Shown here: one piece after another, positions 36,645 through 51,424 of the stretch | Position numbering within the stretch: position 1 is the stretch's first letter | How the letters are laid out: every line of letters begins with the position of its first letter | NCBI GenBank assembly: GCA_046583315.1 | Contig: JAYGCN010000034.1 | Coordinates: forward strand, 1 to 64,000 | Source: Candidatus Hydrogenedentota bacterium | Lineage (GTDB): Bacteria > Hydrogenedentota > Hydrogenedentia > Hydrogenedentales > GCA-2746185 | Reading direction: 5' to 3' | DNA length: 64,000 nt | The notes under the pieces: generated by a model | The model's database searches: none | What the model saw: only the letters and a program-made list of their open reading frames with translations | Told to the model about the DNA's origin: nothing | Made by a program: the position numbers and the translations under genes

Positions 36645-37655
36645 GTGCGACAAAGCCATTTCCGCTGTACCGCTCTACTGCTCACCGTCATACTCGCCTT
36701 TAACAGCCAAGCACAAGACGTCGAACCCTGCGCTGCCTTCCCAGGAGCCTTTGACAACTATGAAGACTTCGTATTCACGAAGCTTGATGCCGACGGAGAT
36801 CTCGACGATGATGGACTCCCCGAACAAGCCTCACTCGCGCTGATCGAAGCCGTCGCCTGCATCGATACCACCTCCGATATGAATGATGCGACATTCAACG
36901 CCTACAACATGAACCTTGCCGTCTTCGATCTGGAAGTCGACGTTAATCACCTGCTTCCCTATCGCAACACCATTGCCCTGCTCATGCTGATCGGGGCCGA
37001 CGTGCAAGTCCAACTCAATGCAGCATTGCATGGCGTACTTCTTGGTACCTACGAAATCGTGCAATGTGACGGGGCCGAATGCACACCCGACCCCATTCCA
37101 GAAGTCGACGCATCCGTAGCCCTAATAACACGTTCCGTTGTAACCCGTGCCACAAACGAACCCTACTCAGGCAGCGGTAACCTCGATCAAGACGGCACGG
37201 ATAACGCCACTGAATATTCCAACGTGATAAGCCAGGGAGGTCGCACCCACGACTTCGTCGTAGCCGCCACCAGTCCCAATCTCAACGGTACCGAAGAAAT
37301 TCGCAATCCCGGCGGTTCTAGCAGAGGCGGATGCTTCGTGGCAACCGCCGCATACGGCACGCCACTCGCCAGTGAAATCGATACCCTGCGCATCTGGCGC
37401 GACGGCATGTTACTCGACAACGCATTGGGAACCGCATTCGTGGACACCTACTACCGACTCAGCCCTGCACTGGCCGATGTGATCGCCACGCGCCCCGTAC
37501 TAAAGAACAGTGCACGAATCGTTCTCTATCCCGTCGTGTGGACGCTTCAATTCCCCGCGCTCGGCCTCGCCACTATTCTTATAGCCCTTGCATTTACAGG
37601 TTATTTCATCCTGAAAATATTCATTAAGAGCACGAAACGAGGAGTACAACGATAA
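36645..37655 (+). CDS. Secreted acidic protein with DxDxDG motifs and C-terminal CFI-box-CTERM domain
   Basis: Signal peptide; DADGDLDDDG, NLDQDG; GGCFVATAAYGTP...LRIWRD...FVDTYYRLSP, TM helix, basic tail. Confidence 0.8.
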   Translation: MRQSHFRCTALLLTVILAFNSQAQDVEPCAAFPGAFDNYEDFVFTKLDADGDLDDDGLPEQASLALIEAVACIDTTSDMNDATFNAYNMNLAVFDLEVDVNHLLPYRNTIALLMLIGADVQVQLNAALHGVLLGTYEIVQCDGAECTPDPIPEVDASVALITRSVVTRATNEPYSGSGNLDQDGTDNATEYSNVISQGGRTHDFVVAATSPNLNGTEEIRNPGGSSRGGCFVATAAYGTPLASEIDTLRIWRDGMLLDNALGTAFVDTYYRLSPALADVIATRPVLKNSARIVLYPVVWTLQFPALGLATILIALAFTGYFILKIFIKSTKRGVQR

Positions 37656-37746
37656 AATAGCGAAGGTTCTTGATGTTTGAAATGGAACTGTTTAATATAA
37701 AACGTATATTATACTCCCAAACAGTATTCACACAGACGGAGCCGAC

Positions 37747-40227
37747 ATGCCCAACAAGCCAGATTCCAGTTCATTCTCTCCCATTGCGCGTATATATGAC
37801 GCAACCGTGCTCAAATATCCGCTCATTGTTCTACTGTTAACCGTCATTTTGACTGGCTTTTTCGCCTATTACTCACGCGACTTTCGATTGGATGCCTCCA
37901 GCGACGCCATTGTCCTCGAATCCGATCCCGACCTTCGGTATTACGATGATACCCGCGATTTATTCGGCTCCGACGACTACATCATCATCACAGTAACTCC
38001 ACCCGACGGTCTAAGCCTCATGGACGACGAAGTCCTTACCCCCCTCAAGGCCATGGTTGCCGAATTCGAAGCCCTGGACGACGTAAAATCCGTCACCAGC
38101 ATCCTAAACGTCCCCCTGTTTCACAGCCCCGACATTCCGCTCATGAAACTTTTGGGCAGTTTTCTAGTAGGCGACCCCGCATACCGAACTCTCGAAGAAG
38201 ATGCCGAGCGGGACAAAGTGCTCGCCGAACTGACCACGAGCCCCCTTTACAGCAACTACCTCATCGCCAAGGACGGCACGACGACGGCCGTGCAAGTAAC
38301 GTACAACGATCACCCAGAAGAATTCAGAGAACTACTTGCCAAGCGTACCGCGCTCAAGGATAAACGAAGAACCGAAGCGGGTCTCACATCCGAAGAGAAA
38401 TCCGATCTCGCCAAAATCGAAACAGAATACAAACCGATGTACGAAGACCTAATCGCGCAAAACAGCGAATCAATCGTAGCGACACGTGAAATCGTAGCCC
38501 GATACGGGCACATGGGCGATCTCCACATCGGCGGCGTCCCGATGATCATGGCCGACATTATCAGTTACGTTGAACAGGACATGCGCACCTTCGGGGTCAG
38601 CATCATCATCCTCGTGCTCATCGTACTTACCCTTCTCTTCCGTAATGTCCGGTGGGTGATACTCCCAACTCTCGTGTGTATTCTCACCGTTCTCTTTATG
38701 TTCGGTTACCTCGGATTCACACGCTGGAACGCAACCATCGTCACCTCCAATTTCCCATCCCTCCTCTTCGTAATAGCCCTGGCCGACGTACTCCACGTCG
38801 TCGTTCACTACCGCGAACTACACTCGCGCAACCCCAAAACCTCAAAACGCGAACTCATCCTTCAATCCGCTCGCGACGTCGCCGTACCGTGTTTCTACAC
38901 CTCCGTGACCACCATCGTGGGATTCGGTAGCCTCATCGTCAGCGGTATTCGCCCCGTAATGGATTTCGGTATCATGATGGCCATCGGGGTTGGACTCGCC
39001 TACACCATCTGCTTCGTATTCTTCCCGGCCGCACTCATGCTCTTCCCAAAAGGCGATCCCCCTCCTCAAAAGCTCGGCGAGCTCAAAGATTCACCCCTCA
39101 TGTTCTTCGCACGATTCTCCGAAAAAAACCGTATACTCATCTACGTTGTGAGCATTGCTGTATTTCTGATCGGCCTTATCGGTGCACAAAGAATTCTCGT
39201 CGAAAACAGATTTATCGATTACTTCGCCAAGGACACCCCTATCTATCAAGGGATGACCGTTATTGATAGAGAACTCGGCGGCACTACCCCGCTCGAAGTC
39301 GTATTGGTCGCGGACGAAGACGGCTACTGGATTAAGCAGGAAAATCTCGACAAACTCGCCGAAATTCACACATGGCTCGCCGACCTCCCCCAGACCGGAA
39401 AGGCCATTTCTCCTCACACACTCATCCAAATGCTGGAAAAAACGTATGAAGGAAAGCCTATTCCATTGCCCTTACTAATAAGAATCCTCGACGGGCTGCC
39501 AGACGACATCAGCCAAACAGTCGTCTCACCCTACCTCACCGAAGATCGCCGTCAGGTGCGTATCTCAATGCGGGCGAAGGAATCAGACACGTCCCTCAAC
39601 CGCAAAGACCTAATCGCGACCATTGACGAGTACTTCGCAACCGACCCCGTATTCGACGGGATCGAACCCCACGTCACAGGAATCTTCGTCCTCTACAACA
39701 ATCTACTCCAAAGCCTTTTTACCAGCCAGATTAAATCCATTGCCACCGTATTCTTCATCATCTGGCTCATGTTCGTGGGCCTCTTCCGTTCAATCCGCAT
39801 TGCCACCATAGCCATCATCCCCAACATTCTCCCGGTTACCCTAATCCTTGGCATCCTCGGATGGACCGGAACCCCGCTCGACCTGATGACCATCATGACC
39901 GCCGCCATCACACTCGGCATCGCGGTCGATTTTGCCATTCACTACATTCACCGCTTCAAACACGAGTTCGCAGATAACGGCAGTTACACCGAATCCATGT
40001 ACCGCACCCACAACTCCATCGGTCGTGCGATGTTCTTCACCACAATTTGTATCATCGCCGGATTCTCACTGCTCACCATGTCCAATTTCATACCCAGCAT
40101 CTACTTCGGAATCTTCACATCACTCGCCATCACTGTCGCCTTCCTCGCCTCCGTCACCCTGCTACCGCTCCTGCTCATCGCCTGGAAGCCTTTGGGCCCC
40201 GAAGGCAACGGTACCGCTACCGACTAG
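37747..40227 (+). CDS. MMPL/RND-superfamily transporter
   Basis: Two-repeat RND topology; TTIVGFGSL, GIAVDFAIHY. Confidence 0.9.
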   Translation: MPNKPDSSSFSPIARIYDATVLKYPLIVLLLTVILTGFFAYYSRDFRLDASSDAIVLESDPDLRYYDDTRDLFGSDDYIIITVTPPDGLSLMDDEVLTPLKAMVAEFEALDDVKSVTSILNVPLFHSPDIPLMKLLGSFLVGDPAYRTLEEDAERDKVLAELTTSPLYSNYLIAKDGTTTAVQVTYNDHPEEFRELLAKRTALKDKRRTEAGLTSEEKSDLAKIETEYKPMYEDLIAQNSESIVATREIVARYGHMGDLHIGGVPMIMADIISYVEQDMRTFGVSIIILVLIVLTLLFRNVRWVILPTLVCILTVLFMFGYLGFTRWNATIVTSNFPSLLFVIALADVLHVVVHYRELHSRNPKTSKRELILQSARDVAVPCFYTSVTTIVGFGSLIVSGIRPVMDFGIMMAIGVGLAYTICFVFFPAALMLFPKGDPPPQKLGELKDSPLMFFARFSEKNRILIYVVSIAVFLIGLIGAQRILVENRFIDYFAKDTPIYQGMTVIDRELGGTTPLEVVLVADEDGYWIKQENLDKLAEIHTWLADLPQTGKAISPHTLIQMLEKTYEGKPIPLPLLIRILDGLPDDISQTVVSPYLTEDRRQVRISMRAKESDTSLNRKDLIATIDEYFATDPVFDGIEPHVTGIFVLYNNLLQSLFTSQIKSIATVFFIIWLMFVGLFRSIRIATIAIIPNILPVTLILGILGWTGTPLDLMTIMTAAITLGIAVDFAIHYIHRFKHEFADNGSYTESMYRTHNSIGRAMFFTTICIIAGFSLLTMSNFIPSIYFGIFTSLAITVAFLASVTLLPLLLIAWKPLGPEGNGTATD

Positions 40228-40236
40228 CAGTCTCAC

Positions 40237-41883
40237 ATGGTACGCGTATCCGACATAAAATTACCCTTCGACCACGCCGAGGATGACCTCCGCTCCGCGT
40301 TAATCGAACGACTTGGCATCCCAGGCGGAGATCTGCTCGAGTACACCGTCTTCCGGCGCGCCACCGACGCCCGCAAACGAGATGCCATCTACTTCGTATA
40401 CATGCTCGATGCCACGGTACGCGATGAAAACGCCTGCGCAGAACACCCTCACATCCAACCGACCCCTGACATGGAATACCCCTTCGTCATTCCACCCATA
40501 GACGCTGCCCCTGCGTCCACTACCTCCGAATCCCGCCGTCCCATCGTCGTCGGCCTTGGTCCCTCCGGCATGTTCGCCGCCCTGTTACTCGCGCAGATGG
40601 GCCTGTGCCCAATCGTCATCGAACGCGGCAAAAAAGCCCGCGCCCGTGCACAAGATGTATTCGGATTCTGGCGCAAGAACGAATTCAATCCCAGTTCCAA
40701 CGTGCAATTCGGCGAAGGCGGCGCCGGAACCTTCTCCGATGGCAAACTCACCACCCGCATCAAAAACGAAAACAACCGCGTACGTAAAGTCCTCTACGAA
40801 ATGGCCAAAGCCGGTGCCCCCGAAGAAATTAGGCATCTCGCGAAACCCCACATCGGCACCTACAAAATCATCCGCGTCGTACGTGCACTGCGCGCCGAAA
40901 TCATCCGACTCGGCGGCGAAGTTAGATTCGAGACCCAAGTCACGGATCTCCACATCGATCATGGTCACATTCGCGGGGTTCGGCTCAGCACAGGCGAACA
41001 ATTGGATACCGACCACCTCATCGTCGCCATCGGTCACAGCGCGCGCGACACCTTCAAGATGCTCTACGACCGCGGCGTACACTTCGATGCCAAACCCTTC
41101 TCCATCGGCGTGCGCATCGAACACCCCCAGTCGCTCATCGATCAATCCCAATTCGGGAAATTTTCAGGCGACAAACGACTCGGAGCCGCCGACTACAAAC
41201 TCGTGCACCATTGCAGCAACGGCCGCGGTGCCTACAGCTTCTGCATGTGCCCCGGCGGCACCGTAATCGCCTCCGCTTCTGAACCCGGACAAGTCGTCAC
41301 CAACGGCATGAGTTATTACTCCCGTAGCCTGCCCAACGCCAACAGCGCGCTGGCCATCGACATCTCCCCGGCCGATTTCGGAGACACTCACCCCCTCGCC
41401 GGCGTCGAATACCAACGAATCTGGGAAAAGAAAGCCTACGCCGCCGGTGGATCAAACTATTTCGCCCCCGTCCAACGTATCGAAGATTTCCTCGCGAAAC
41501 GTCCTACCAAAGAACTCGGAGATGTGCAACCCGCCTACACCCCGGGGGTCACGCCCGCCGACCTCAGAGATTGCCTGCCCGACTACATCACCGAAGCCAT
41601 GCGCGAAGCCATCCCGGCCATGGACCGAAAACTCCGCGGATACGCCATGCCAGACGCCATCCTCACGGGAATCGAAACCCGGACGTCGTCCCCCGTGCGC
41701 ATCAGACGCGGCCCTGATTTCCAAAGCATCTCCATTCGCGGACTCTACCCCGCCGGTGAAGGTGCCGGATATGCCGGTGGTATAATGTCCGCCGCAGTCG
41801 ACGGCATCAAAGTAGCCGAAGCCGTCGCGCGCAACCTCAACGCCATGGAGGTGGACGATGGTTCAGTCCCGGAAAAAGCGTAA
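40237..41883 (+). CDS. Uncharacterised FAD-dependent oxidoreductase
   Basis: VVGLGPSG, GEGGAGTFSDGKL, SFCMCPGG, GEGAGYAGGI. Confidence 0.9.
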   Translation: MVRVSDIKLPFDHAEDDLRSALIERLGIPGGDLLEYTVFRRATDARKRDAIYFVYMLDATVRDENACAEHPHIQPTPDMEYPFVIPPIDAAPASTTSESRRPIVVGLGPSGMFAALLLAQMGLCPIVIERGKKARARAQDVFGFWRKNEFNPSSNVQFGEGGAGTFSDGKLTTRIKNENNRVRKVLYEMAKAGAPEEIRHLAKPHIGTYKIIRVVRALRAEIIRLGGEVRFETQVTDLHIDHGHIRGVRLSTGEQLDTDHLIVAIGHSARDTFKMLYDRGVHFDAKPFSIGVRIEHPQSLIDQSQFGKFSGDKRLGAADYKLVHHCSNGRGAYSFCMCPGGTVIASASEPGQVVTNGMSYYSRSLPNANSALAIDISPADFGDTHPLAGVEYQRIWEKKAYAAGGSNYFAPVQRIEDFLAKRPTKELGDVQPAYTPGVTPADLRDCLPDYITEAMREAIPAMDRKLRGYAMPDAILTGIETRTSSPVRIRRGPDFQSISIRGLYPAGEGAGYAGGIMSAAVDGIKVAEAVARNLNAMEVDDGSVPEKA

Positions 41884-42655
41884 AGACAAAAAGAAACTAC
41901 TCGGTAGCCACCAACGCAGCTGGATATGGGGCCGCCACGCCGTTTGCGAAATCCTCGAAGCCGGACGCTGGCCCATGAGCGAATTGTACCTGAGCGATCA
42001 ACTGGACCCCGGCGAGCAACAGGACGCAAAAATCCAAGCCGATGCCCTGGGCTACATGGTGCGCATTGAATCCCCGGACCGCATTCACGAACTATGCAAA
42101 ACAGGTGAACACCAGGGCTATCTCGCCAAAATGCTCGATTATCCCTACGCCGATCTCGAGGAAATACTGGCCAAACTCCAGACCAACACAAAAACCAATC
42201 CGATTCCGATATTCGTGATGCTCGACGGCATTCAAGACCCCTACAACTTCGGCGCGATCGTGCGCTCCGCAGAAGTCCTCGGCATCAACGGCTTCGTCAT
42301 CAGCGACACCAATCAAGTCGGCGTCACCAGCATGGTCGCCCGCAGTTCCGCCGGCGCCGTCAACCATTTGCCCATCGTGCGCACCGAAAATCTCCTCGCC
42401 GCCATAGAGACCCTCAAAAAATCTGGCGTGTCCGTCATTGGTGCATCCGAAAAAGGCGCCACCCCCCTCGACGAACATAATTTCGACTCACCAACACTAC
42501 TCATTCTCGGCAACGAAGGTAGTGGAATTTGCGAAGACCTGCTCAAACAATGCGATACCCGGTTAAGCATCGCCCAAACAGGAAAAGTCGGATCCTTGAA
42601 TGTTGCGGCGGCCGCAGCCATCCTATTCCACGAAGCCAGACGCCCACGCGGCTAA
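41858..42655 (+). CDS. rlmB: 23S rRNA 2'-O-methyltransferase (SpoU/TrmH family, RlmB-like)
   Basis: WGRHAV, HQG, DPYNFGAIVRS, GNEGSG, SLNVAAA. Confidence 0.85.
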   Translation: MVQSRKKRKDKKKLLGSHQRSWIWGRHAVCEILEAGRWPMSELYLSDQLDPGEQQDAKIQADALGYMVRIESPDRIHELCKTGEHQGYLAKMLDYPYADLEEILAKLQTNTKTNPIPIFVMLDGIQDPYNFGAIVRSAEVLGINGFVISDTNQVGVTSMVARSSAGAVNHLPIVRTENLLAAIETLKKSGVSVIGASEKGATPLDEHNFDSPTLLILGNEGSGICEDLLKQCDTRLSIAQTGKVGSLNVAAAAAILFHEARRPRG

Positions 42656-43512
42656 TCCTCTTCCTCCAGCATCGCTTCCCCCATCCTGACAATCGCCGCA
42701 CGCACCTCCCCTTCCGAATTCCACGGCAGAAAATGATTCTTCTCCTCCAGAATCACCGTCTCCAAAATCGACCCCTCCGGAAACATCCGTTCCATGTACG
42801 CCACATTCGCATACGGCACCAGCATGTCATCCGGCGCATGAAGTATCGTGACCAAACACTCAACCTGACTCAATAATGGTTCAAGCTTTTCCAATTCCGA
42901 CCGCATCGGTTTCAATTCGCGATTCGAATTCCGAAGCCCTTGCGGCACAAGATACGCCGTCGCTTTCCAATCCAACAATCGATTGTACCAATGCCATTTT
43001 TCCTCATCCGGATCCAACGATCCCGCCAGAATCACAATCCCCGAAACCCGCTCCGGATACTGCGCCGCCACCTGAGCAATAATCGGCCCGCCCAACGAAT
43101 GACCAATCAAAATAGGCCATTGCCCTCCTTGTTCCACCAAGAACGGCTCCAACGCCGCCGCATGATCCGCCAATGAATAAGCAGGTATTTTCGGCGAAGT
43201 CTGCCCGAAACCCGGACGATCAACCGAGATCGATTCATATCCTTCCATTGGATTGAGCAAGTATCGCTCGAAGGCCCCGGCATCGCCCGGCGTCCCATGT
43301 ACATAAATGAGCCGCGGCAAATCCGGGTCACTGACTGACTCCATCAAATAGCTGACCATCCACTGCGTTTCCGTATCCTGAATCGCCCGTGTGATGCCCG
43401 GATTTTCTTCGCCACCATTGTTGAAACGATCCCACACCTGCCAAAAAATCACATCCCCGGCAACAAGCAGCGAAAAAATAATCAGTACCACTTTCAAAAT
43501 CCAGCGCTTCAA
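42652..43512 (-). CDS. Membrane-anchored alpha/beta hydrolase
   Basis: N-terminal TM, HGTPG, GHSLGG, C-terminal D...NHF; TTGA overlap with upstream gene. Confidence 0.88.
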   Translation of the reverse strand: MKRWILKVVLIIFSLLVAGDVIFWQVWDRFNNGGEENPGITRAIQDTETQWMVSYLMESVSDPDLPRLIYVHGTPGDAGAFERYLLNPMEGYESISVDRPGFGQTSPKIPAYSLADHAAALEPFLVEQGGQWPILIGHSLGGPIIAQVAAQYPERVSGIVILAGSLDPDEEKWHWYNRLLDWKATAYLVPQGLRNSNRELKPMRSELEKLEPLLSQVECLVTILHAPDDMLVPYANVAYMERMFPEGSILETVILEEKNHFLPWNSEGEVRAAIVRMGEAMLEEED

Positions 43513-44312
43513 TCCGAGGTCTCCCGTAATCCCACGACACACGATTTCAACTCCGCCGCCAATATTTTCCTATCAGAAGACCTTTCCGTCGCGACCACAT
43601 CGCCAAAAGTAATCGTCACCCTCACACCGCGCATCCCCAGCAATCCAAACAGATGCGAAACAAACACATGGTCCTTCCAATACGCCACGTTCTCGTCAAT
43701 ATCAATCGCTCCATCCGCAGACGACCAGCGTATCCCCACCGGCATCGTCGCGATGCCCGTATCAATCGCCGACTGCAACAGCGATCCGTGAAATGGCAAC
43801 ACATCCCCCCCGCCCGAAGTAGTCCCCTCCAGAAATACGCACACCGAATGCCCCGCCAGAAGCCGAGCGCCGATTCGCTCGTTGACCTCCTGAATCGCCC
43901 GACGATTCCCGCGCGGAATCGACAGCTGCCGAGCTGCCACGAAGATATGCCCAATCACAGGCCACGTCTCCACTTCTGCTTTCGAGACGAAAAAAGTCCG
44001 AGCCACGCTGCCCAACGCCAATATGTCAATATACCCGATATGATTCGGCACCAGCAGAAGTGGCTTCTCCGGAACATCGCCGTGTACCGTGACATCCACC
44101 TTCAGCAACGCAATACAAGACTTCATCCACGCACACGACCTCGATTCCGCCCAAACCAACTGCTCTTCGTTGCTCAGACCACGAGCCTTCCACCGATAGT
44201 GAGCATAATGAGCCGCAGTGAACGCGACCAGCCGAGCCGACCTCCACGACGCAAGCAAGCGATTCGGCTTCTGCGTCACACGCGTCTCTCCGGCGCTATC
44301 CAAGACGCTCAT
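43509..44312 (-). CDS. PlsC/OlsA-like lysolipid O-acyltransferase
   Basis: NHIGYID (HX4D), FVSKAE, FLEGTT. Confidence 0.88.
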   Translation of the reverse strand: MSVLDSAGETRVTQKPNRLLASWRSARLVAFTAAHYAHYRWKARGLSNEEQLVWAESRSCAWMKSCIALLKVDVTVHGDVPEKPLLLVPNHIGYIDILALGSVARTFFVSKAEVETWPVIGHIFVAARQLSIPRGNRRAIQEVNERIGARLLAGHSVCVFLEGTTSGGGDVLPFHGSLLQSAIDTGIATMPVGIRWSSADGAIDIDENVAYWKDHVFVSHLFGLLGMRGVRVTITFGDVVATERSSDRKILAAELKSCVVGLRETSD

Positions 44313-45151
44313 TTTACGATGTCGAGCTGTGAAAATTTAATGTCGCGCGCATCAATAATCACCAGAAAGTCTACCGTTCCAAACGCGCGGTCAATTGCCG
44401 GCTCAGAAATCACCTTGGCCCCCAAATGAAGGTATGTTCGAAACAATTTCGGAAGAGGGATAGCGTCGCCTATTTCGGGGTCCAATTCTCGTGCAGCATC
44501 GCCACACCCATAGGCCTCCAGCGCAGACAAGTAAACAGAATCATCGAGATACCCCTTTTCGCGAATCGTTTTCAGCGCGCGCCACCCGTCATCCGGGTCC
44601 TGTGTCGTCAATGAACAACACCCAAAAAGATAATGCTGATCATACAGATTCATGTACGTACCGATACCCTGCCACAACCCGATAATCGCGCGCATCGAGC
44701 GATGTTCCGAAGCCAGACACGCCCGTCCCGATTCGAGGGCTCTGTCCAAACGCGACGCCATGCCCGACAGATCATATTCCATTGACGAGTAAAATCCGAT
44801 TCCTGCCTCCGCTTGTTTCGCCGTCTGAATCCGATACGTCCCGACCACGGTATGGCCCTTCAGCTCAATCAAAATCAAATGCGTCATCTGCGCATCATAG
44901 TCATCGCGATCCAGACCCGTCGCCGTCGAAGAATCCAGCCCCTCATCCAGTTCCAGATTAAACACTTCATAACGAAGCCGTAGCGCGCACTCCACCGCGT
45001 AATCCGACCGCGCAAAACCCACGCAATAGCGGTCCTTGTCCCCGACCGGTAACGAGAGCACATCCACCTCGCCCCAGAGTGACGAAAAATCGTCCACAGA
45101 ACGCAGCGGCTTCATGCTCAACGAGCGATCCGCAGAGGTTGCTTCAGTCAT
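44309..45151 (-). CDS. OlsB-like GNAT N-acyl amino acid synthase
   Basis: RLRYEVFNLEL, DRDDYD, VVGTYR, ESGRAC, LPKLFRTYLHLGA, PAIDRAFGTVDF. Confidence 0.88.
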   Translation of the reverse strand: MTEATSADRSLSMKPLRSVDDFSSLWGEVDVLSLPVGDKDRYCVGFARSDYAVECALRLRYEVFNLELDEGLDSSTATGLDRDDYDAQMTHLILIELKGHTVVGTYRIQTAKQAEAGIGFYSSMEYDLSGMASRLDRALESGRACLASEHRSMRAIIGLWQGIGTYMNLYDQHYLFGCCSLTTQDPDDGWRALKTIREKGYLDDSVYLSALEAYGCGDAARELDPEIGDAIPLPKLFRTYLHLGAKVISEPAIDRAFGTVDFLVIIDARDIKFSQLDIVK

Positions 45152-45177
45152 GTTGTTCTTCTCCCATTAAGACACAC

Positions 45178-46848
45178 TCAATGCGCCGTCGGATAATGAC
45201 GCGCCACACGATGATACTGCCAAACATCCTTCAAAAACGCGATGGGACGCATGGGGGCATGCCCTTCAGCCCGATTCTTGTCGCCAATCTCAAACAATAC
45301 CCTGAACTGCTCGAACAAGGTCGCATACGCATCGGTAATGGTCGCATTCGGATCCCAAATATGCGTCGCCTCGGCACCGGCGCCATTAATTTCAATGATA
45401 TGAAAATTCTCGCCCCGTCCCAACGATTCCTCATCCTGATAGCGAACATCAAAGCGTCCAAAATAAAAATCCGGTATCTCCTGTGCAATCGCGTCAATGC
45501 GTTCAACAAGCGCATCCGCCAACAACGCCGACCCATCACGAAAAATACAGCCCTGCTTGTGATTGCCGGCAAACACCAGCGGAAAATACTCGCCATCAGG
45601 CAACACCTCCACCAAGCGGTCAAAATGCCGCTGCTCAAACATCGAGGCCTTTATAGACGCACGCGGATCAGCCAAAATCAGTTCGTTCAGTGTATGCATA
45701 CCATCGCCCAGCACACCCGGAAAATCCTTCGCCGTAACCGACGTAATCATCCCTTTGTCCTGACCAGGCACGCGATGATACAAGAGCCCGACCTCAGATT
45801 CATGCGGCGATCGTTTCTGCAAACACACAGACGCGCCCTTCGGATACGCCTGTAAATAATCACTCAGCTCCGCATCATTATCGATCGGACGCACACCAAC
45901 TCCGCGCTGACCCTCATCCGGTTTCGCAACGATCGGGTAGTCAATTTCCGCACGCGCCAACGCCTCCTTCGCGGCAGTTAGCAGTTCTGAGGAATCCATC
46001 CCTTCCATCGGCACATCCAACCGCGCATGCGGCGCAACCCAATCCCGAATCGACTCCGGCAACATGTCCAGAATGTCACACTTCGACTCACGAATCATGC
46101 CGCCAGAATAAATAGACGGATTCGCCGCTGTAGGAAGCATGAGACTTCTGTACTTCAACGAGAGCCATCCATAATATACCGCAACGGGAAAATAGAATAT
46201 AATCGGATGAAGAAATTCGAAATTCGAGGCCACCGCCCCTTCCGAATCTCCAGCCGCTTCCTCCTCTTTCATCCGGGCCATTATGCGATGTTGCATAAAA
46301 ATGATCCACGCGATCAGGGCAAACACCGCAGGCCACTTCAACTGACCCAACAACGGCAACACGAACCCACCCAGCGTGGCAATCGCGCTCAACGCAATAA
46401 ACACCCATACCAACGAGGCCAACAAAGCTATCGGCAGATACCGCATCGGAGAAGCTTGAGCAATGCCCGCCGCAAGATTCGCCGGCAACCTCAGCCCAGG
46501 CACAAAACGCGATATGAAAACCGACGCCACAAGGTTACGCTCAAACCAGCCCCGCGCATTGTCCAGTCTGCGTTGCGAGACCCATCCCCACGCGACCGTT
46601 TTCGGACCCACCGCGCGCCCAATCGCGTACAATCCCCAATCGCCGATGCCAATGCCCAGCGAAAGCCCGACCAACGCCGTCATATAAAACATGTGATCTT
46701 CCGCCACCAGAACGGCGCACATAAGCAATGTCGGATCTTCCAGGACAAACGTACTCACCGCAGCAAGCGCCCCCTGCAGCCACGGCGTCTCCGACAAACG
46801 AATCAACGCGTCTTCAAACCAGGCTTCCACGAAGCTATCCGTCCGCAT
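45178..46848 (-). CDS. DedA/VTT membrane domain fused to an ATP-grasp ligase domain
   Basis: TFVLED, GD-x2-LY-x-GR, SRFVPGLR; then ANPSI, AKPDEGQRGVGV, FGRFDVRY, IIEINGAGAE. Confidence 0.85.
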   Translation of the reverse strand: MRTDSFVEAWFEDALIRLSETPWLQGALAAVSTFVLEDPTLLMCAVLVAEDHMFYMTALVGLSLGIGIGDWGLYAIGRAVGPKTVAWGWVSQRRLDNARGWFERNLVASVFISRFVPGLRLPANLAAGIAQASPMRYLPIALLASLVWVFIALSAIATLGGFVLPLLGQLKWPAVFALIAWIIFMQHRIMARMKEEEAAGDSEGAVASNFEFLHPIIFYFPVAVYYGWLSLKYRSLMLPTAANPSIYSGGMIRESKCDILDMLPESIRDWVAPHARLDVPMEGMDSSELLTAAKEALARAEIDYPIVAKPDEGQRGVGVRPIDNDAELSDYLQAYPKGASVCLQKRSPHESEVGLLYHRVPGQDKGMITSVTAKDFPGVLGDGMHTLNELILADPRASIKASMFEQRHFDRLVEVLPDGEYFPLVFAGNHKQGCIFRDGSALLADALVERIDAIAQEIPDFYFGRFDVRYQDEESLGRGENFHIIEINGAGAEATHIWDPNATITDAYATLFEQFRVLFEIGDKNRAEGHAPMRPIAFLKDVWQYHRVARHYPTAH

Positions 46849-47614
46849 CCCGCGCGATGACGGCTTCCGACTCCAACAGCAACGTTTCCACCACATCAGG
46901 GTGCAAGGTGTCGGGATGCGGATCGGACCAATACCGAAGCGTCAACTCGCCCTCCGCAGAAGGAATCTCCACCTGCGTCACACTTCGCGTCGCTGACCAA
47001 CTCCGTTTCATCAACGGCGACCAGTCCTCTCGACCCTCCTCTTGAATCAAATGAAATTTCGGCAGGTGATCAACCATTTGCTGCCCGGACTTTTTCCAAT
47101 CCTCGAACAATTCCTCGCGCCACGCCTTCACTTCCTTACTATCCCAACCCGAAGACGACCGCAACGTCCATTCCGTGCGCACATCTTGTTCAATCAACTC
47201 ACCCTGCCGCAGCCACGTCAAACACTTCCCAATACCCCCGCCGAAAATCAGCAAGTTGAATGAAGGATACTGCTCCGGATCAAGTTCCGTTGTCGCCCAG
47301 GCAATGGCCCGATCCACATCGCCACATTCCAACACCGCAGGGATAATCTCCCCCCGACTGCGATAACGACCCGTCGTATCCGGCAACAAGCTCTCCCCCG
47401 GCAAATAGGCGTTCAATAAACAGGCCACCACGCCAAAATTACTCGCACCCATCCAGGTACCGCCCTTTTCACCATCATGCGGCGCGATCCACTGCCCACC
47501 ACCCGGAATCGCATGAATCACCGGCGGCGTTTCCGGCGCACGATTCAACGCTTCATCCCGGTTCATCGTTGCCAATAATCGGCCCGACTCAAGCTGTACC
47601 GTCAACGTACACAT
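46835..47614 (-). CDS. NRDE/TANGO2-family protein (Ntn-like, Cys2)
   Basis: Starts MCT; literal NRDE motif; GGTW, LLN, SRG, FNL. Confidence 0.9.
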   Translation of the reverse strand: MCTLTVQLESGRLLATMNRDEALNRAPETPPVIHAIPGGGQWIAPHDGEKGGTWMGASNFGVVACLLNAYLPGESLLPDTTGRYRSRGEIIPAVLECGDVDRAIAWATTELDPEQYPSFNLLIFGGGIGKCLTWLRQGELIEQDVRTEWTLRSSSGWDSKEVKAWREELFEDWKKSGQQMVDHLPKFHLIQEEGREDWSPLMKRSWSATRSVTQVEIPSAEGELTLRYWSDPHPDTLHPDVVETLLLESEAVIARDADG

Positions 47615-47646
47615 GGTGGTATCGATTCCCTTCAGAGATGAACGGC

Positions 47647-48171
47647 TTAGCCGACTGCGACATTCCGATACGCTGCGGTAGAAAAGGCAAGGCCAATATT
47701 TGGCGACAATTCAACGCCACCCTGTTGGCAATAGAGGTTAATCATCGAAAGATGATGAATCATGTGACTAGAAATAAAGGTCAATTCACGCGCAGCACTC
47801 GAAGGGACTTCAATCTGAGCTTCGCCGATTGCGGGCAGCTGACGCACACGAACGGAGCGATCAATCTGACCCTCGCTCAATCCCGCCAAAGCATTCACTG
47901 CCTCCGTCAAAGCATCGCTCATTTCAGCGCGAGACAACTCCAGGCGTTCATCACGAGCGCGCGCATCATAATCAATCTCGCCCTGCTCAAGCCCCGCCAA
48001 AAAACAATGCACATGTTCGAGACCATGCCGAAGATGGCAACCGATCGAGTCATGGCTGTTACTCTTGTCCACATAAAGCGTGTCAGGAATTACCGCGACG
48101 GCCCGTGTACACCGCTCCAACACCTCAATGCATCCCACAACAGTCGGATGAACGCCTCGCTTGGCTACCAT
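47647..48171 (-). CDS. DinB/YfiT-like four-helix metalloprotein
   Basis: SIGCHLRH, IDYDARAR, RELTF-x-SHMIHH; GGGAG RBS before ATG 48171. Confidence 0.85.
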   Translation of the reverse strand: MVAKRGVHPTVVGCIEVLERCTRAVAVIPDTLYVDKSNSHDSIGCHLRHGLEHVHCFLAGLEQGEIDYDARARDERLELSRAEMSDALTEAVNALAGLSEGQIDRSVRVRQLPAIGEAQIEVPSSAARELTFISSHMIHHLSMINLYCQQGGVELSPNIGLAFSTAAYRNVAVG

Positions 48172-48413
48172 AAATGATCTCCCTATTTCGTACAATTCGA
48201 GTGTAACACACTTCTCAAAGACCGATAAAAAATTGACCTGCTGAAACATTACGCAACACCTACTCGTTTACATTCCTAAAAGGCTTCTAGTGGTGTCATA
48301 AAAGTGAAAGGACCCCCGTATTTATGCTATGATCGGGATTATTCGTAGTTAGTTATTTCGACCAATAAATACCCCCTGCGGTGTCAAACACCGGCAAAAG
48401 GAGCACCATTCCC

Positions 48414-49115
48414 ATGAAAAAAACGGCAATTCTGGCCTGTTCGCTAGCAATCACATTCACATTCTCCGCATGTTCCGAGGATGCCACCGAAAAATCCGAG
48501 CTTCCACTCCCCGAGGACGCCACCGAAATACTCGAACTTGAGCTGCCCGAGCCCTATTTCGGCGGAACGCCCCTGGACTATTTCGGAGCCAATCTTGAAG
48601 ATCCCAATTACAAGAAACGGCCCGATTTCATGGTCCCCGCAGGCGTTACAAACGTAGCCAAAGGCAAAACGGTTAGCGCCAGCACCGCCAAGCCTGAATT
48701 CGGCGAATTTTCCTTCCTCGTCGATGGCGACAAATCCTACGAACAAAAGAGTCTTCTCGGTCTCGCCGCTGGCGGACAATGGATTCAGGTTGATCTCGGT
48801 TCCGTTCACACACTCTATGCCCTGATGCTCTGGCACTTCCACGAAGGCGACCGCGTCTACTTCGATGTCATCGTAACCTCCGCCGACGATGCCGAGTTCA
48901 CCAAGAATCTGCAGACCATCTTCAACAACGATCACGACAACACCTCTGAAAAGGGCGCCGGCAAGGACAAAGAGTACATCGAATCCTACAAAGCCAAATT
49001 CGTGGACACCAAAGGCGTTACCGGACGGTACGTACGCTTCTACACCAAAGGAAACACCTCAGACGATTTCAATCACTACGTCGAAGTCGAAGTCTTCGGT
49101 AAACCTGAGAAGTAA
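48414..49115 (+). CDS. Lipoprotein with discoidin/F5-8-like domain
   Basis: Lipobox FSA-C; NVAKGKTV, LVDGD, WIQVDLG, RYVRFY, EVEVFG. Confidence 0.8.
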   Translation: MKKTAILACSLAITFTFSACSEDATEKSELPLPEDATEILELELPEPYFGGTPLDYFGANLEDPNYKKRPDFMVPAGVTNVAKGKTVSASTAKPEFGEFSFLVDGDKSYEQKSLLGLAAGGQWIQVDLGSVHTLYALMLWHFHEGDRVYFDVIVTSADDAEFTKNLQTIFNNDHDNTSEKGAGKDKEYIESYKAKFVDTKGVTGRYVRFYTKGNTSDDFNHYVEVEVFGKPEK

Positions 49116-49123
49116 CAATCGCG

Positions 49124-50674
49124 GTGACGCAACTCACTTCAATACAAATCAAAGCGCTCATTGTCCTGGTGGCAATGGGCGCTTTTTTCATTCGACTGCC
49201 CGAGCTCGACCTGCGCCCCATGCACGGCGATGAAGCCAACCAGGCCCACAAAACCGGCATCCTCATCGAAGAGGGAACATACATCTACGATCCCCACGAC
49301 CACCACGGCCCCACCCTCTACTACCTCGCCCGAATCGCAGCCTCCCTATCCGGACAAGACTCCTACGCCCAAACCAACGAGACCACCTACCGCATCGTGC
49401 CCGTCATCTTCGGTACCCTGCTCATTCTCGTCACATTGCTGCTCTACCCCGCCCTATCGCCTTTAACGCTCCTCTACTCAGCACTCATCGTCGCGGTATC
49501 CCCCGCTTTCATATTCTATAGCCGCTACTACATCCAGGAAACGCTCCTGGTATTCTTCACCCTTACCACAATCGGCTTCGGCTACCGATACCTGCGCAAC
49601 CCACGTCTCTCAACGGCCATCGGACTCGGGGCCTCCCTGAGCCTCATGCACGCCACTAAAGAAACCGCCATCATCGCCTACATCGCCATGGCCGCGGGAC
49701 TCGTCGCAACAGGCTGGATCTACCGGGAGTCGCGACTCATATCCGATTTTAAGAAAAAAACCTCGCGCAACCATCTCATCGCGGGACTCGCTATCGCCCT
49801 CGCCATCAACATCCTGCTCTTCACGGCCTTCTTCAGCAACCTGCGCGGCCCTCTCGACTCCATCCTCACCTACGGAAACTATCTCAAACGTGCCGACGGT
49901 GCAGGCTTACATGACAAACCCTGGCATTACTACCTGCACCTACTCTTCTACACCAACAAAGGCCCCCAATACTGGTTCAGCGAAGGATTCGTTGCCGGAC
50001 TCGGCCTCATCGGCATTGCCCTAAACATCTGGCTTGCCCGGCGCAAGAAAGTCTCCCCTCTAACCCTGTTCCTCAGCGTCTATACCCTCGCGATGATCAT
50101 CATCTACGCCCTTATCCCTTACAAAACCCCCTGGTCCATGCTCAGCTTTTACCACGGCCTCGCCCTCGTCGCCGCCATCACTTGTGCGAACCTCACCGCC
50201 TCAATTAAACCCCTCCCCATGAAAGCCACCGCAGTCATCATCATACTCGCCGCCATCATCCACCTTTCCTACCAGGGCCACATCGTCAACCGCGTCATCC
50301 CCGCCGATCCCCGCAACCCCTACGTCTACGCACACACCTCCACGGCCTTCATGAAAATGCCCCAACGCGTCGACGACATTCGCGCAGTCCATCCCAATCC
50401 CGAAGAGATGCGTGTCTACATCATTCAACCCGACGCCGACTACTGGCCGCTCCCCTTTTACCTGCGCAAACATCCCAACGTAGGATTTTTCTCCACCGTG
50501 CCCGAAAATCCCGACGCCGACATCATCATTGCGGCCCCCTCAACACGCACAGTGCTCGCCGAACGATTGAAAGACACTTACTTCACAGAAACCGGCGGTC
50601 TTCGCCCCTCAGTACTGCGCCACGTGTATATTCGACAAGATCTCTGGGATGCCTACATGGTCGATCGGCAATAA
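49124..50674 (+). CDS. TIGR03663/Agl23-like GT-C membrane protein
   Basis: RPMHGDEA, YDP-x2-HGP-LYY, YSRYYIQE, ATKE, YKTPW, NPYVYAHT, YWPLPFYLR. Confidence 0.8.
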   Translation: MTQLTSIQIKALIVLVAMGAFFIRLPELDLRPMHGDEANQAHKTGILIEEGTYIYDPHDHHGPTLYYLARIAASLSGQDSYAQTNETTYRIVPVIFGTLLILVTLLLYPALSPLTLLYSALIVAVSPAFIFYSRYYIQETLLVFFTLTTIGFGYRYLRNPRLSTAIGLGASLSLMHATKETAIIAYIAMAAGLVATGWIYRESRLISDFKKKTSRNHLIAGLAIALAINILLFTAFFSNLRGPLDSILTYGNYLKRADGAGLHDKPWHYYLHLLFYTNKGPQYWFSEGFVAGLGLIGIALNIWLARRKKVSPLTLFLSVYTLAMIIIYALIPYKTPWSMLSFYHGLALVAAITCANLTASIKPLPMKATAVIIILAAIIHLSYQGHIVNRVIPADPRNPYVYAHTSTAFMKMPQRVDDIRAVHPNPEEMRVYIIQPDADYWPLPFYLRKHPNVGFFSTVPENPDADIIIAAPSTRTVLAERLKDTYFTETGGLRPSVLRHVYIRQDLWDAYMVDRQ

Positions 50675-51424
50675 CTAGCGATACTGCCCCAACGACGCGC
50701 GCCCACGAATAATCAGCACCTCGCGAATCATGTCCAGCGAATCAAAAATGGCATGCACCCGCGTATCCAGCGAGTTCAGCCACCGTATCGGTACGTCCGC
50801 AATTCGATAGCCAAGCTTCCCCGCAATATACAACATCTCGCAATCCGCACCGAAGCCATCCGATCGCATACGACTGAAAACGGGCTCTATGCACGTCGCC
50901 CGAACGCCCTTGAATCCACACTGGGTATCCTTAAACGTGGTAAGCCCCAACAATCGCAACAGCAGGTTATAAATCCGCCCCATCGACTGACGATACAAGG
51001 GCTGACGAATCTGCACATCCGATCCCGCAATCGAACGCGACCCGATCACAATATCAAAGCCCTCTTCAAACTTCGGCCACAACTTCTCCACATCATCAAT
51101 CGGTGTCGAACCATCCGCGTCATAAATCAGCACAAACTCACCCGTGCAAAGCGGCCCTCCCACCCGCGTCGCATAGCCCTTGCCACGATTCGTCTCATAG
51201 GCATGCATGCGCACATCCGGGTACCCAGCCTCAACCGTCTCAACGGTTTGGTCCGTACTCCCGTCGCTCACAACCAGAATTTCGGCCCGATACGACTGCT
51301 TTGCAAAGTATTCCTGCAAAATATCCAGCGTACCGCCAATGCGTTTTTCCTCATTATAGGCCGGTATCAAAACGCTAATCTGTATCGAATCCTCGCTCAC
51401 GAAGGCCCCTTCTGCTACATCCAC
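50675..51424 (-). CDS. GT2 polyprenyl-phosphate glycosyltransferase (Dol-P-Glc synthase-like)
   Basis: IPAYNE, DGSTD, NRGKG, DADGS, DTQCGFK. Confidence 0.88.
   Translation of the reverse strand: MDVAEGAFVSEDSIQISVLIPAYNEEKRIGGTLDILQEYFAKQSYRAEILVVSDGSTDQTVETVEAGYPDVRMHAYETNRGKGYATRVGGPLCTGEFVLIYDADGSTPIDDVEKLWPKFEEGFDIVIGSRSIAGSDVQIRQPLYRQSMGRIYNLLLRLLGLTTFKDTQCGFKGVRATCIEPVFSRMRSDGFGADCEMLYIAGKLGYRIADVPIRWLNSLDTRVHAIFDSLDMIREVLIIRGRASLGQYR

Follow-up and report, generated by a model that had tools for sequence, protein, structure and literature searches.

Which lipid would the six genes at positions 42652-48171 of a Candidatus Hydrogenedentota genome build or modify, and where would the amine for their unusual ligase come from? 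These genes lie on the minus strand of a 64,000-nucleotide stretch (the window: positions 1 to 64,000 of contig JAYGCN010000034.1, assembly GCA_046583315.1) and encode a DinB protein, an NRDE/TANGO2-family protein, a DedA::ATP-grasp fusion, OlsB-like and OlsA-like acyltransferases and an alpha/beta serine hydrolase. We find a real, conserved and uncharacterised aminolipid-modifying operon whose genes very probably work together. Our reading, offered tentatively, is that the ligase caps an aminolipid with taurine or hypotaurine to give a product similar to cerilipin, and that the DinB and NRDE proteins supply the amine. The core of the pathway belongs to a known type. Taurine-capped ornithine lipid has been described before, but no gene is known for its ATP-dependent step (PMC12971839).

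48171-47647, minus strand: DinB protein, 174 residues; ATG behind GGGAGA
47614-46835, minus strand: NRDE/TANGO2 protein, 259 residues; begins Met-Cys
46830-45178, minus strand: DedA::ATP-grasp ligase, 550 residues as the database protein; an ATG at 46848 gives 556 residues
45151-44309, minus strand: OlsB-like GNAT N-acyltransferase, 280 residues
44312-43509, minus strand: OlsA-like PlsC-family O-acyltransferase, 267 residues
43542-42652, minus strand: alpha/beta serine hydrolase, 296 residues as an open reading frame; alternative start TTG at 43512

A conserved and tightly packed operon

The preliminary description of this DNA had set out six co-directional, closely packed genes between a divergent lipoprotein gene and a convergent rlmB, and the positions of the open reading frames bear this out. 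No gap or overlap exceeds 34 nucleotides; along the operon the values are 32, -14 (or +4), 26, -4 (the overlap of the OlsB-like and OlsA-like genes) and -34 (or -4). The start of the DedA fusion at 46830 is better placed than that in the program-made list of reading frames, and for the hydrolase the TTG at 43512, which lies behind GGGAGA and gives a 4-nucleotide overlap with the OlsA-like stop, is likelier than 43542. We found no sigma-70-like site upstream of the DinB gene on the minus strand, and promoter and terminator counts were about those of shuffled sequence. One close copy of each of the six genes was found in the window's genome (G000).

The ligase occurs in 10 of 41 sampled relatives. 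The order DinB-NRDE-DedA::ligase-OlsB-OlsA is kept in all eight Hydrogenedentota relative loci that we fetched, with the hydrolase directly behind in six, and because the same order recurs in relatives the arrangement is no chance product. For all six genes, family models, folds and profile searches agree with the domain assignments made at the outset.

The DedA-tethered ATP-grasp ligase

The third gene joins a DedA domain (PF09335, VTT; 55.6 bits against a cut-off of 33.9) to a C-terminal domain of 350 residues that profile searches and the predicted structure identify as an ATP-grasp domain. In the DedA part, the acidic re-entrant and RxxPGxR motifs are retained, with E31, D32, R108, P111, G112 and R114 each at a frequency of at least 0.95. 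Pfam assigns no family to the ligase domain of the window protein, and 8 of 43 members match ATP-grasp weakly. The best profile matches in the PDB are CphA2 (8fxh, E = 1.6e-8), CphA1 and GshAB; the AlphaFold2 model (pLDDT 94.1) superimposes on LysX/ArgX with a Z score of 15.0 (root-mean-square deviation (rmsd) 3.7, 224 residues aligned) and on CphA2 with a Z score of 13.6. Across 129 sequences, K104 (the Lys of VAKP), D262, E281 and N283 (the last two forming ExN) occur at a frequency of 1.00, and R260 is kept in about 100%. The public annotation of this domain as a D-Ala-D-Ala ligase was set aside, since Ddl matches are weaker than those to CphA.

The likeness to the G domain of cyanophycin synthetase, to CphA2 and to the ATP-grasp domain of GshAB thus lies in the best profile matches, including the GDG lid insertion, and in a shared fold. 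The ligase differs from these enzymes in its identity to them of about 20% or less, in the absence of their partner domains, and in carrying a hydrophobic N-terminal helix and a DedA tether. By analogy with other ATP-grasp amide ligases, it probably acts on the head group of an aminolipid through an acyl-phosphate. The hydrophobic segments and charges of the DedA domain suggest an N terminus outside the cell and a C terminus within it; the hydrolase (when fused) would then be outside and the ligase inside.

Stand-alone members of the ligase clade adjoin an MTS-type methyltransferase on a Komagataeibacter plasmid (L100:5076-8014) and in Variovorax (L105:5634-8890); the former also adjoins a heme-oxygenase-like iron enzyme, the latter lies upstream of an OlsB gene, and their products may differ. 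A paper on thiohistidine dipeptides describes NHISS-linked ATP-grasp enzymes, and the portion of its text available to us mentions no lipid, DedA protein or taurine (PMC13674229).

The ligase accompanies predicted aminolipid synthase genes

The OlsB-like protein matches PF13444 (Acetyltransf_5) with 90 bits against a cut-off of 22.4, and the OlsA-like protein matches PF01553 above its cut-off with 73 bits. For both, Ols models are the top NCBIfam matches at well under half of the curated equivalog cut-offs: 121 of 350 bits for NF052554 and 116 of 320 for NF052555 in the OlsB-like protein, and 127 (NF052553, OlsA) and 104 (NF052552), each of 300 bits, in the OlsA-like protein. The HxxxxD motif of the latter (N90-H91-x4-D96) is invariant in 40 sequences. 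The OlsB-like gene is the sole PF13444-type gene found in the window's genome, and a second, separate PlsC gene lies on another contig (C285). From these sequence features the two proteins likely act like OlsB and OlsA, though they are not filed under those families.

In this respect the operon resembles the OlsB/OlsA ornithine-lipid pathway of Sinorhizobium, Brucella and Rhodobacter, and the fused OlsF, in which a GNAT N-acyltransferase is followed by a PlsC-type O-acyltransferase. It differs in that both proteins fall far under the curated cut-offs and in its four extra genes. The known Ols modifiers in the review literature (OlsC, OlsD, OlsE and OlsG) include no amide ligase, unlike the operon described here. 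The last gene encodes a hydrolase of family PF00561 (80 bits, above cut-off) with a triad of S149, D239 and H270 conserved at 98-100% in 46 sequences; it has one N-terminal hydrophobic segment (residues 9-27) and is predicted to be membrane-anchored and periplasmic. We rejected its identification as OlsI, an alpha/beta-fold O-acyltransferase: NF052614 scores 18 of 385 bits, and the gene co-occurs with OlsA.

Genome-wide searches support the view that the ligase depends on an aminolipid synthase. Among 151 evenly sampled Acidobacteriota (each of our even-sample counts includes the ligase-bearing centre genome), an OlsB/OlsF-type PF13444 domain is present in 16 of the 17 ligase-bearing genomes and in 12 of the 134 without the ligase. 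Ten further genomes, most of them without an Ols gene near the ligase, gave PF13444 in nine, the tenth being the Acidobacteriota exception (G510). Two of five ligase-bearing Myxococcota have PF13444; the other three have a GH3 protein that resembles OlsH and scores under the curated cut-off. Because nearly all of these ligase genomes carry PF13444 or GH3, the ligase would seem to be an accessory to aminolipid synthesis, whichever of three types the genome has.

The OlsH-like GH3 genes in Myxococcota (L263:753-4336, L264:622-4491, L265:2995-9801) are possible further lipid pathways. Their neighbours are genes for UDP-glucose dehydrogenase and GT4 enzymes or, alternatively, for an LPG-synthase transmembrane protein, an MMPL transporter and another pyridoxal phosphate (PLP) decarboxylase.

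Neighbouring decarboxylases suggest the amine

Seven genomes from three phyla carry a group-II PLP decarboxylase directly beside the ligase (L026, L041, L044, L052, L115, L116, L117). The best PDB matches of the L041 enzyme are mouse and human cysteine sulfinic acid decarboxylase (CSAD; E = 1.5e-82), with identical F-x19-S-x-Y residues, which we take to be the CSAD/GAD selectivity motif; the corresponding CSAD and GADL1 residues are visible in the L041 profile matches. Cysteine dioxygenase (CDO) and CSAD together lead to hypotaurine and taurine. In L041 and L044 a CDO gene separates the decarboxylase from the ligase; in L115 and L116 the decarboxylase itself carries a fused CDO-like cupin. The six such loci on our ligase tree (all trees were made with FastTree) occupy four separate places, and at none of the seven is a DinB or NRDE gene found near the ligase. 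Selectivity between CSAD and GAD is determined by three positions, according to the part of the source available (PMC8153620).

Since CSAD-like and CDO genes adjoin the ligase, we favour taurine or hypotaurine over an ordinary amino acid as the amine; in genomes with a CSAD-like decarboxylase this assignment is rather likely. The initial suggestion that the ligase adds a second amino acid or amine therefore keeps its amide-ligase role on an aminolipid, with an ordinary amino acid now the less likely partner.

The Acidobacteriota sample extends this pattern beyond the immediate neighbourhood. A CSAD-type gene (E <= 1e-120) is present in six genomes and the ligase-linked DinB clade in eleven, all ligase-bearing, and each is found in none of the 134 others; of the six CSAD-type genes, one adjoins the ligase and was part of the search model. 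Sixteen of the 17 ligase-bearing genomes have the CSAD-type gene or DinB, one of them both, and the remaining genome has the NRDE clade. At E <= 1e-55, a threshold chosen after the data were seen, the NRDE clade is confined to seven ligase-bearing Acidobacteriota, and four ligase-free genomes reach 1e-41 to 1e-46. Over 85 ligase genomes, 80 of them hand-picked, we counted 2 with both, 14 with CSAD only, 40 with DinB only and 29 with neither, using a CSAD model built from six ligase-adjacent genes; these genome searches scored part of the first-pass candidates, so that misses are possible.

DinB and NRDE genes also stay adjacent to each other when away from the ligase (G460, G461, G492). The window's genome has both, and neither a CSAD-type gene nor CDO was found in the search of that genome. 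In some other genomes the ligase is accompanied by the gene pair of the CDO plus CSAD route to hypotaurine and taurine, as separate or fused genes; here DinB and NRDE occupy the operon instead. The CDO plus CSAD route has been reported in Synechococcus PCC 7335 (cited in PMC8153620, seen in part). Because DinB and NRDE stand where CSAD stands elsewhere, we regard them as candidate suppliers of the amine. The NRDE protein had been thought to trim or recycle the lipid; amine supply fits better, because the two proteins travel as a pair and are nearly exclusive with the CSAD-type gene.

Two other ideas were considered and dropped. A DinB protein that simply replaces CDO disagrees with the six of ten CDO genomes that have DinB, and a cysteate synthase beside CSAD-type genes was not found: the lone PALP neighbour (L160) gives weak matches to models of cysteine synthase and none to a model of cysteate synthase.

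A candidate route from CoA

The DinB protein scores 20 bits with PF05163, under the gathering cut-off of 23. Its AlphaFold2 model (pLDDT 96.5) has the DinB/YfiT four-helix fold, with 6iz2 as the best match (Z 15.1, rmsd 3.2, 140 residues aligned). Matches to EgtB and OvsA (Z 9.8-10.4) rank below generic DinB proteins, and there is no FGE domain in its 174 residues. Invariant in 50 sequences are R48, H49, R71, R128, E129, H136, H139, H140 and T165, which include four His (H49, H136, H139, H140) and three Arg. We predict a His-metal protein of a ligase-linked clade that serves thiol oxidation or another form of amine supply. In the part of the literature available, OvoA is an earlier example of an iron site in a DinB domain at which a thiol is oxygenated (PMC8943887).

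The NRDE protein belongs to the TANGO2/NRDE family of Cys Ntn-hydrolases: it matches PF05742 with 48 bits against 22.6, and its profile finds human TANGO2 (8sv7/9bwa) at E = 7e-11. Its residues C2, N18, R19, D20, E21, R25 and R87 are invariant in 36 sequences and correspond to TANGO2 Cys2, Asn25, Arg26, Asp27, Arg32 and Arg88 (PMC13044924). According to the available part of the same source, human TANGO2 binds coenzyme A (CoA), and sulfate at Arg32/Lys56/Arg88, and its substrate is not known (PMC13044924). Both anion-site arginines, the equivalents of Arg32 and Arg88, are thus invariant in the NRDE clade. Human TANGO2 and Shewanella HtpA share PF05742 with the NRDE protein, which keeps the catalytic and anion-binding residues; HtpA adjoins a metal transporter and is described as a heme carrier (PMC10470608), and the accessible text on HtpA mentions no Ols or ligase context.

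In the pathway we propose, OlsB would acylate an amino acid, ornithine or one like it, and a second chain would come from OlsA. The tethered ATP-grasp domain would then phosphorylate the free alpha-carboxyl and form an amide with taurine or hypotaurine. DedA would carry the lipid, by then more anionic, to the outer side of the membrane, where the hydrolase would remove or swap an acyl chain; we give this joint role of the two proteins an even chance. The DinB and NRDE proteins would supply the amine without a PLP decarboxylase. In one chemically plausible version, DinB would oxidise the CoA or pantetheine sulfur at a His-bound iron, NRDE would cut the amide next to cysteamine, and no decarboxylase step would be needed, since the cysteine of CoA and pantetheine is already decarboxylated.

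These parts differ in strength. That the amine in the window's genome is likewise taurine or hypotaurine is plausible, at slightly under an even chance. Its production by DinB and NRDE from a CoA- or pantetheine-type thiol is unlikely, and the complete combination, in which the operon pairs an orphan taurine-lipid ligase with a decarboxylase-free route to (hypo)taurine via DinB thiol oxidation of CoA or pantetheine and release by the TANGO2 homologue, is more doubtful again.

Several loci add other genes to the DinB end of the operon. In L028, L031, L032, L039, L072 and L073 (several Hydrogenedentota-type loci and one from Acidobacteriota), the gene directly upstream of DinB encodes a fusion of a ferric-reductase-like membrane domain with a Rieske domain, which could feed electrons to a DinB iron centre. 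One Thermoanaerobaculia locus has an EgtB-like DinB_2+FGE gene directly upstream of the operon (L048:6170-7735), and a single Verrucomicrobiia locus has a CoaB-type (PF04127) gene immediately upstream of DinB-DedA::ligase-NRDE (L096:5494-6237). On a Chondrinema plasmid (L262:6989-8931) the same DinB clade is followed by a class-V PLP enzyme of the SufS/PvdN type, a type with cysteine chemistry.

Known lipids and competing explanations

Two described systems bear on the proposed lipid. Cerilipin of Gluconobacter cerinus arises when taurine is joined to ornithine lipid in an ATP-dependent reaction to which no gene has been assigned (PMC12971839); this chemistry fits an ATP-grasp ligase. The Vibrio cholerae cluster VCA0646-VCA0651 is presumed homologous from its annotation and from the Vibrionaceae-type order DedA, ligase, DinB, NRDE, YHS, OlsF; it differs in having OlsF instead of OlsB and OlsA, and in having no hydrolase. 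VCA0646 is a proven ornithine lipid synthase, according to the part of the source available (PMC12186959), and the accessible part of a preprint reports regulation and a colony cell-death phenotype for the cluster and states its functions to be unknown (10.1101/2024.09.23.614608).

A number of observations weigh against the taurine-capping proposal. On the lipid side, the search of G510, a ligase genome, showed neither PF13444 nor GH3, and the first amino acid to be acylated may differ from ornithine, given how far the OlsB-like and OlsA-like proteins fall under the curated cut-offs. Of 1494 relatives of the Komagataeibacter ligase, the best 120 include no Gluconobacter name, and neither do 10 clusters, with few rows named and no Gluconobacter genome searched; the ligase may therefore work like the cerilipin enzyme without being that enzyme. 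In V. cholerae, a separate promoter drives VCA0646, and label from 14C-ornithine appeared only in ordinary ornithine lipid and at the origin (PMC12186959).

On the amine side, CSAD/DinB exclusivity did not reach significance once the tree was taken into account (median p 0.5, with only four well-supported pairs; L113 was left out for its long branch, and G027 and G426 were not represented), which means that the Fisher values exaggerate the exclusivity. The 29 ligase genomes with neither route would need amine import or another source. Five of the 15 top decarboxylases lack F-S-Y (L026 has F-Q-H and L052 W-S-C), and CSAD itself slowly decarboxylates Asp and Glu as well, as stated in the available part of PMC8153620. 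CDO is not exclusive with DinB, as the six of ten CDO genomes noted above show, and a PF05995 match at E <= 1e-8 was found in 3 of 15 CSAD genomes. Finally, 13 of 80 metagenome decarboxylase loci have F-S-Y, five of these with CDO, and the ligase is in the fetched flank of none of the 13.

The strongest competitor, itself unlikely, is the one first proposed for this DNA: the ligase extends the aminolipid with an amine that lacks sulfur (ordinary amino acids, beta-alanine or gamma-aminobutyrate), and NRDE and the hydrolase trim or recycle it. CphA and GshAB, the closest relatives of the ligase in sequence, link peptide-like carboxylates with amino acids. The CSAD residues are missing from some adjacent decarboxylases, and stand-alone ligase homologues occur in Bacteroidota (covered here by two plasmid loci and named proteins). 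Serine-glycine lipids exist, with no serine-adding enzyme named in the review (PMC12971839), and TANGO2 is similar to two enzymes that cleave acyl amides, bile-salt hydrolase and acid ceramidase. A non-sulfur amine would, however, leave unexplained both the insertion or fusion of CDO within the operon in four genomes and the loss of DinB and NRDE where the decarboxylase is present.

Less probable is a thiol or oxidative-stress module, in which DinB, NRDE and the ligase salvage over-oxidised thiols or make a soluble sulfur metabolite and the co-regulated Ols genes make ordinary ornithine lipid. YHS, DoxX, ferric-reductase::Rieske and redoxin genes recur nearby, which speaks for such a role. On an Emticicia plasmid (L261:1733-8175), DinB-NRDE lies in a sigma-factor-led redox operon without an annotated ligase or Ols gene; that operon also encodes a peroxiredoxin-like protein, thioredoxin, a glutaredoxin-reductase fusion and a GDCCVxC protein. 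In V. cholerae, the cluster genes fall alongside msrB, thioredoxin 2 and glutaredoxin in an RNA-seq table, the part of PMC7600106 seen, and ordinary ornithine lipid was the only labelled lipid spot (PMC12186959). Against such a module, the ligase is fused to DedA, often also to a lipase-like domain, and is nearly confined to genomes with an aminolipid synthase, whichever its type.

The least probable alternative is that the ligase first makes a soluble conjugate (e.g. ornithyl-taurine) for OlsB or, in some lineages, caps another acidic lipid (e.g. a glucuronosyl lipid). Taurine amides of glucuronosyl lipids have been attributed to Hyphomonadaceae. The divergence of OlsB (121 of 350 bits) would suit a soluble conjugate, and the other-lipid variant would suit two CSAD+CDO genomes without OlsB/OlsF that have a GH3 gene beside UDP-glucose dehydrogenase and a GT4 glycosyltransferase, but the membrane tether and hydrophobic N-terminal helix of the ligase suit a lipid acceptor, and V. 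cholerae OlsF alone makes plain ornithine lipid in E. coli according to the available part of PMC12186959.

A reshuffled gene set

In even samples from other phyla, ligase-bearing genomes number 9 among 301 Pseudomonadota, 5 among 101 Myxococcota, and 17 each among 151 Acidobacteriota and 151 Verrucomicrobiota. Harmless carriers that can be cultured include Ideonella alba, Novosphingobium silvae, Blastomonas natatoria, Salinivibrio kushneri and Paracoccus denitrificans. Within 6 kb of the ligase at 125 distinct loci, some on short contigs, we counted DedA at 113, OlsB/OlsF at 70, DinB at 62, NRDE at 49, the hydrolase at 44 and OlsA at 37, and all six genes together at 8. The 44 loci from the even samples gave DedA at 38, DinB at 22, the hydrolase at 22, NRDE at 19, OlsB/F at 19 and all six at one. 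Tree and locus counts omit ligase fragments under 280 residues (e.g. L117, L118) and four exact duplicates. The expectation that the genes would be co-conserved across phyla thus holds in that they recur together, and fails for the six-gene set as a fixed unit.

DedA is fused to the ligase in 31 of the 44 evenly sampled loci. Among 26 long homologues, eight are hydrolase::DedA::ligase fusions and one more is TANGO2::hydrolase::DedA::ligase, which physically links hydrolase, DedA and ligase. OlsF fusions stand in for OlsB and OlsA beside the ligase in many loci. Given partner counts that vary by locus and these fusions, the module is a reshuffled gene set of which the window's genome holds a full version.

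Other genes join the module in places: a YHS-domain (seleno)protein at 25 of 125 loci and DoxX at 21 of 125, neither found in the window's genome (such loci are L041, L044, L080, L084, L085, L089-L091, L093, L097-L099, L104, L106-L110, L125, L129 and L142). Record titles overstate the taxonomic spread, because L021, L046, L051, L075 and L077 are titled Nitrospirales or Rhodothermaeota and their contigs are identical to genomes in the window's own family. In L117 (at the end of G426:C254) the N-terminal half of the ligase is inverted relative to CSAD and DedA, a likely mis-assembly.

The operon in the window is flanked by the following features, of which the divergent run keeps its place beside the operon in same-family genomes. 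Farther away, at 36645-40227 on the plus strand, a CFI-box-CTERM protein gene is followed by an MMPL/RND transporter gene.

41858-42655, plus strand: rlmB (TIGR00186 above cut-off), convergent with the operon and overlapping it by 4 nucleotides
from 48381, plus strand: F5/8-domain protein with a lipobox, divergent from the operon
48381-51424, plus strand: divergent run of the F5/8 lipoprotein, an Agl23-like PMT_2 glycosyltransferase and a 249-residue glycosyltransferase-like open reading frame with no Pfam or NCBIfam match

Significance

We found no paper describing this pathway in the literature searched, with subscription journals and supplements outside the search, in agreement with the early view that a pathway of this composition is undescribed; in the accessible part of PMC11631085, ATP-grasp is mentioned only in the reference list. 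The ligase family is a directly testable candidate for the missing taurine-transfer gene (PMC12971839). Because it is large (1670 representatives at 50% identity, E up to 1e-30), a phosphorus-free sulfonolipid could be widespread and overlooked.

The near-exclusivity of DinB-NRDE and the CSAD-type gene also yields a concrete substrate hypothesis for TANGO2-family hydrolases. The human TANGO2 disorder is reported to improve with vitamin B5, in the part of the source available (PMC13044924). If the complete combination of taurine-lipid ligase and CoA route is true, the TANGO2 family would gain its first substrate and a tie to vitamin B5 metabolism, and taurine-capped lipids would be common across bacterial phyla.

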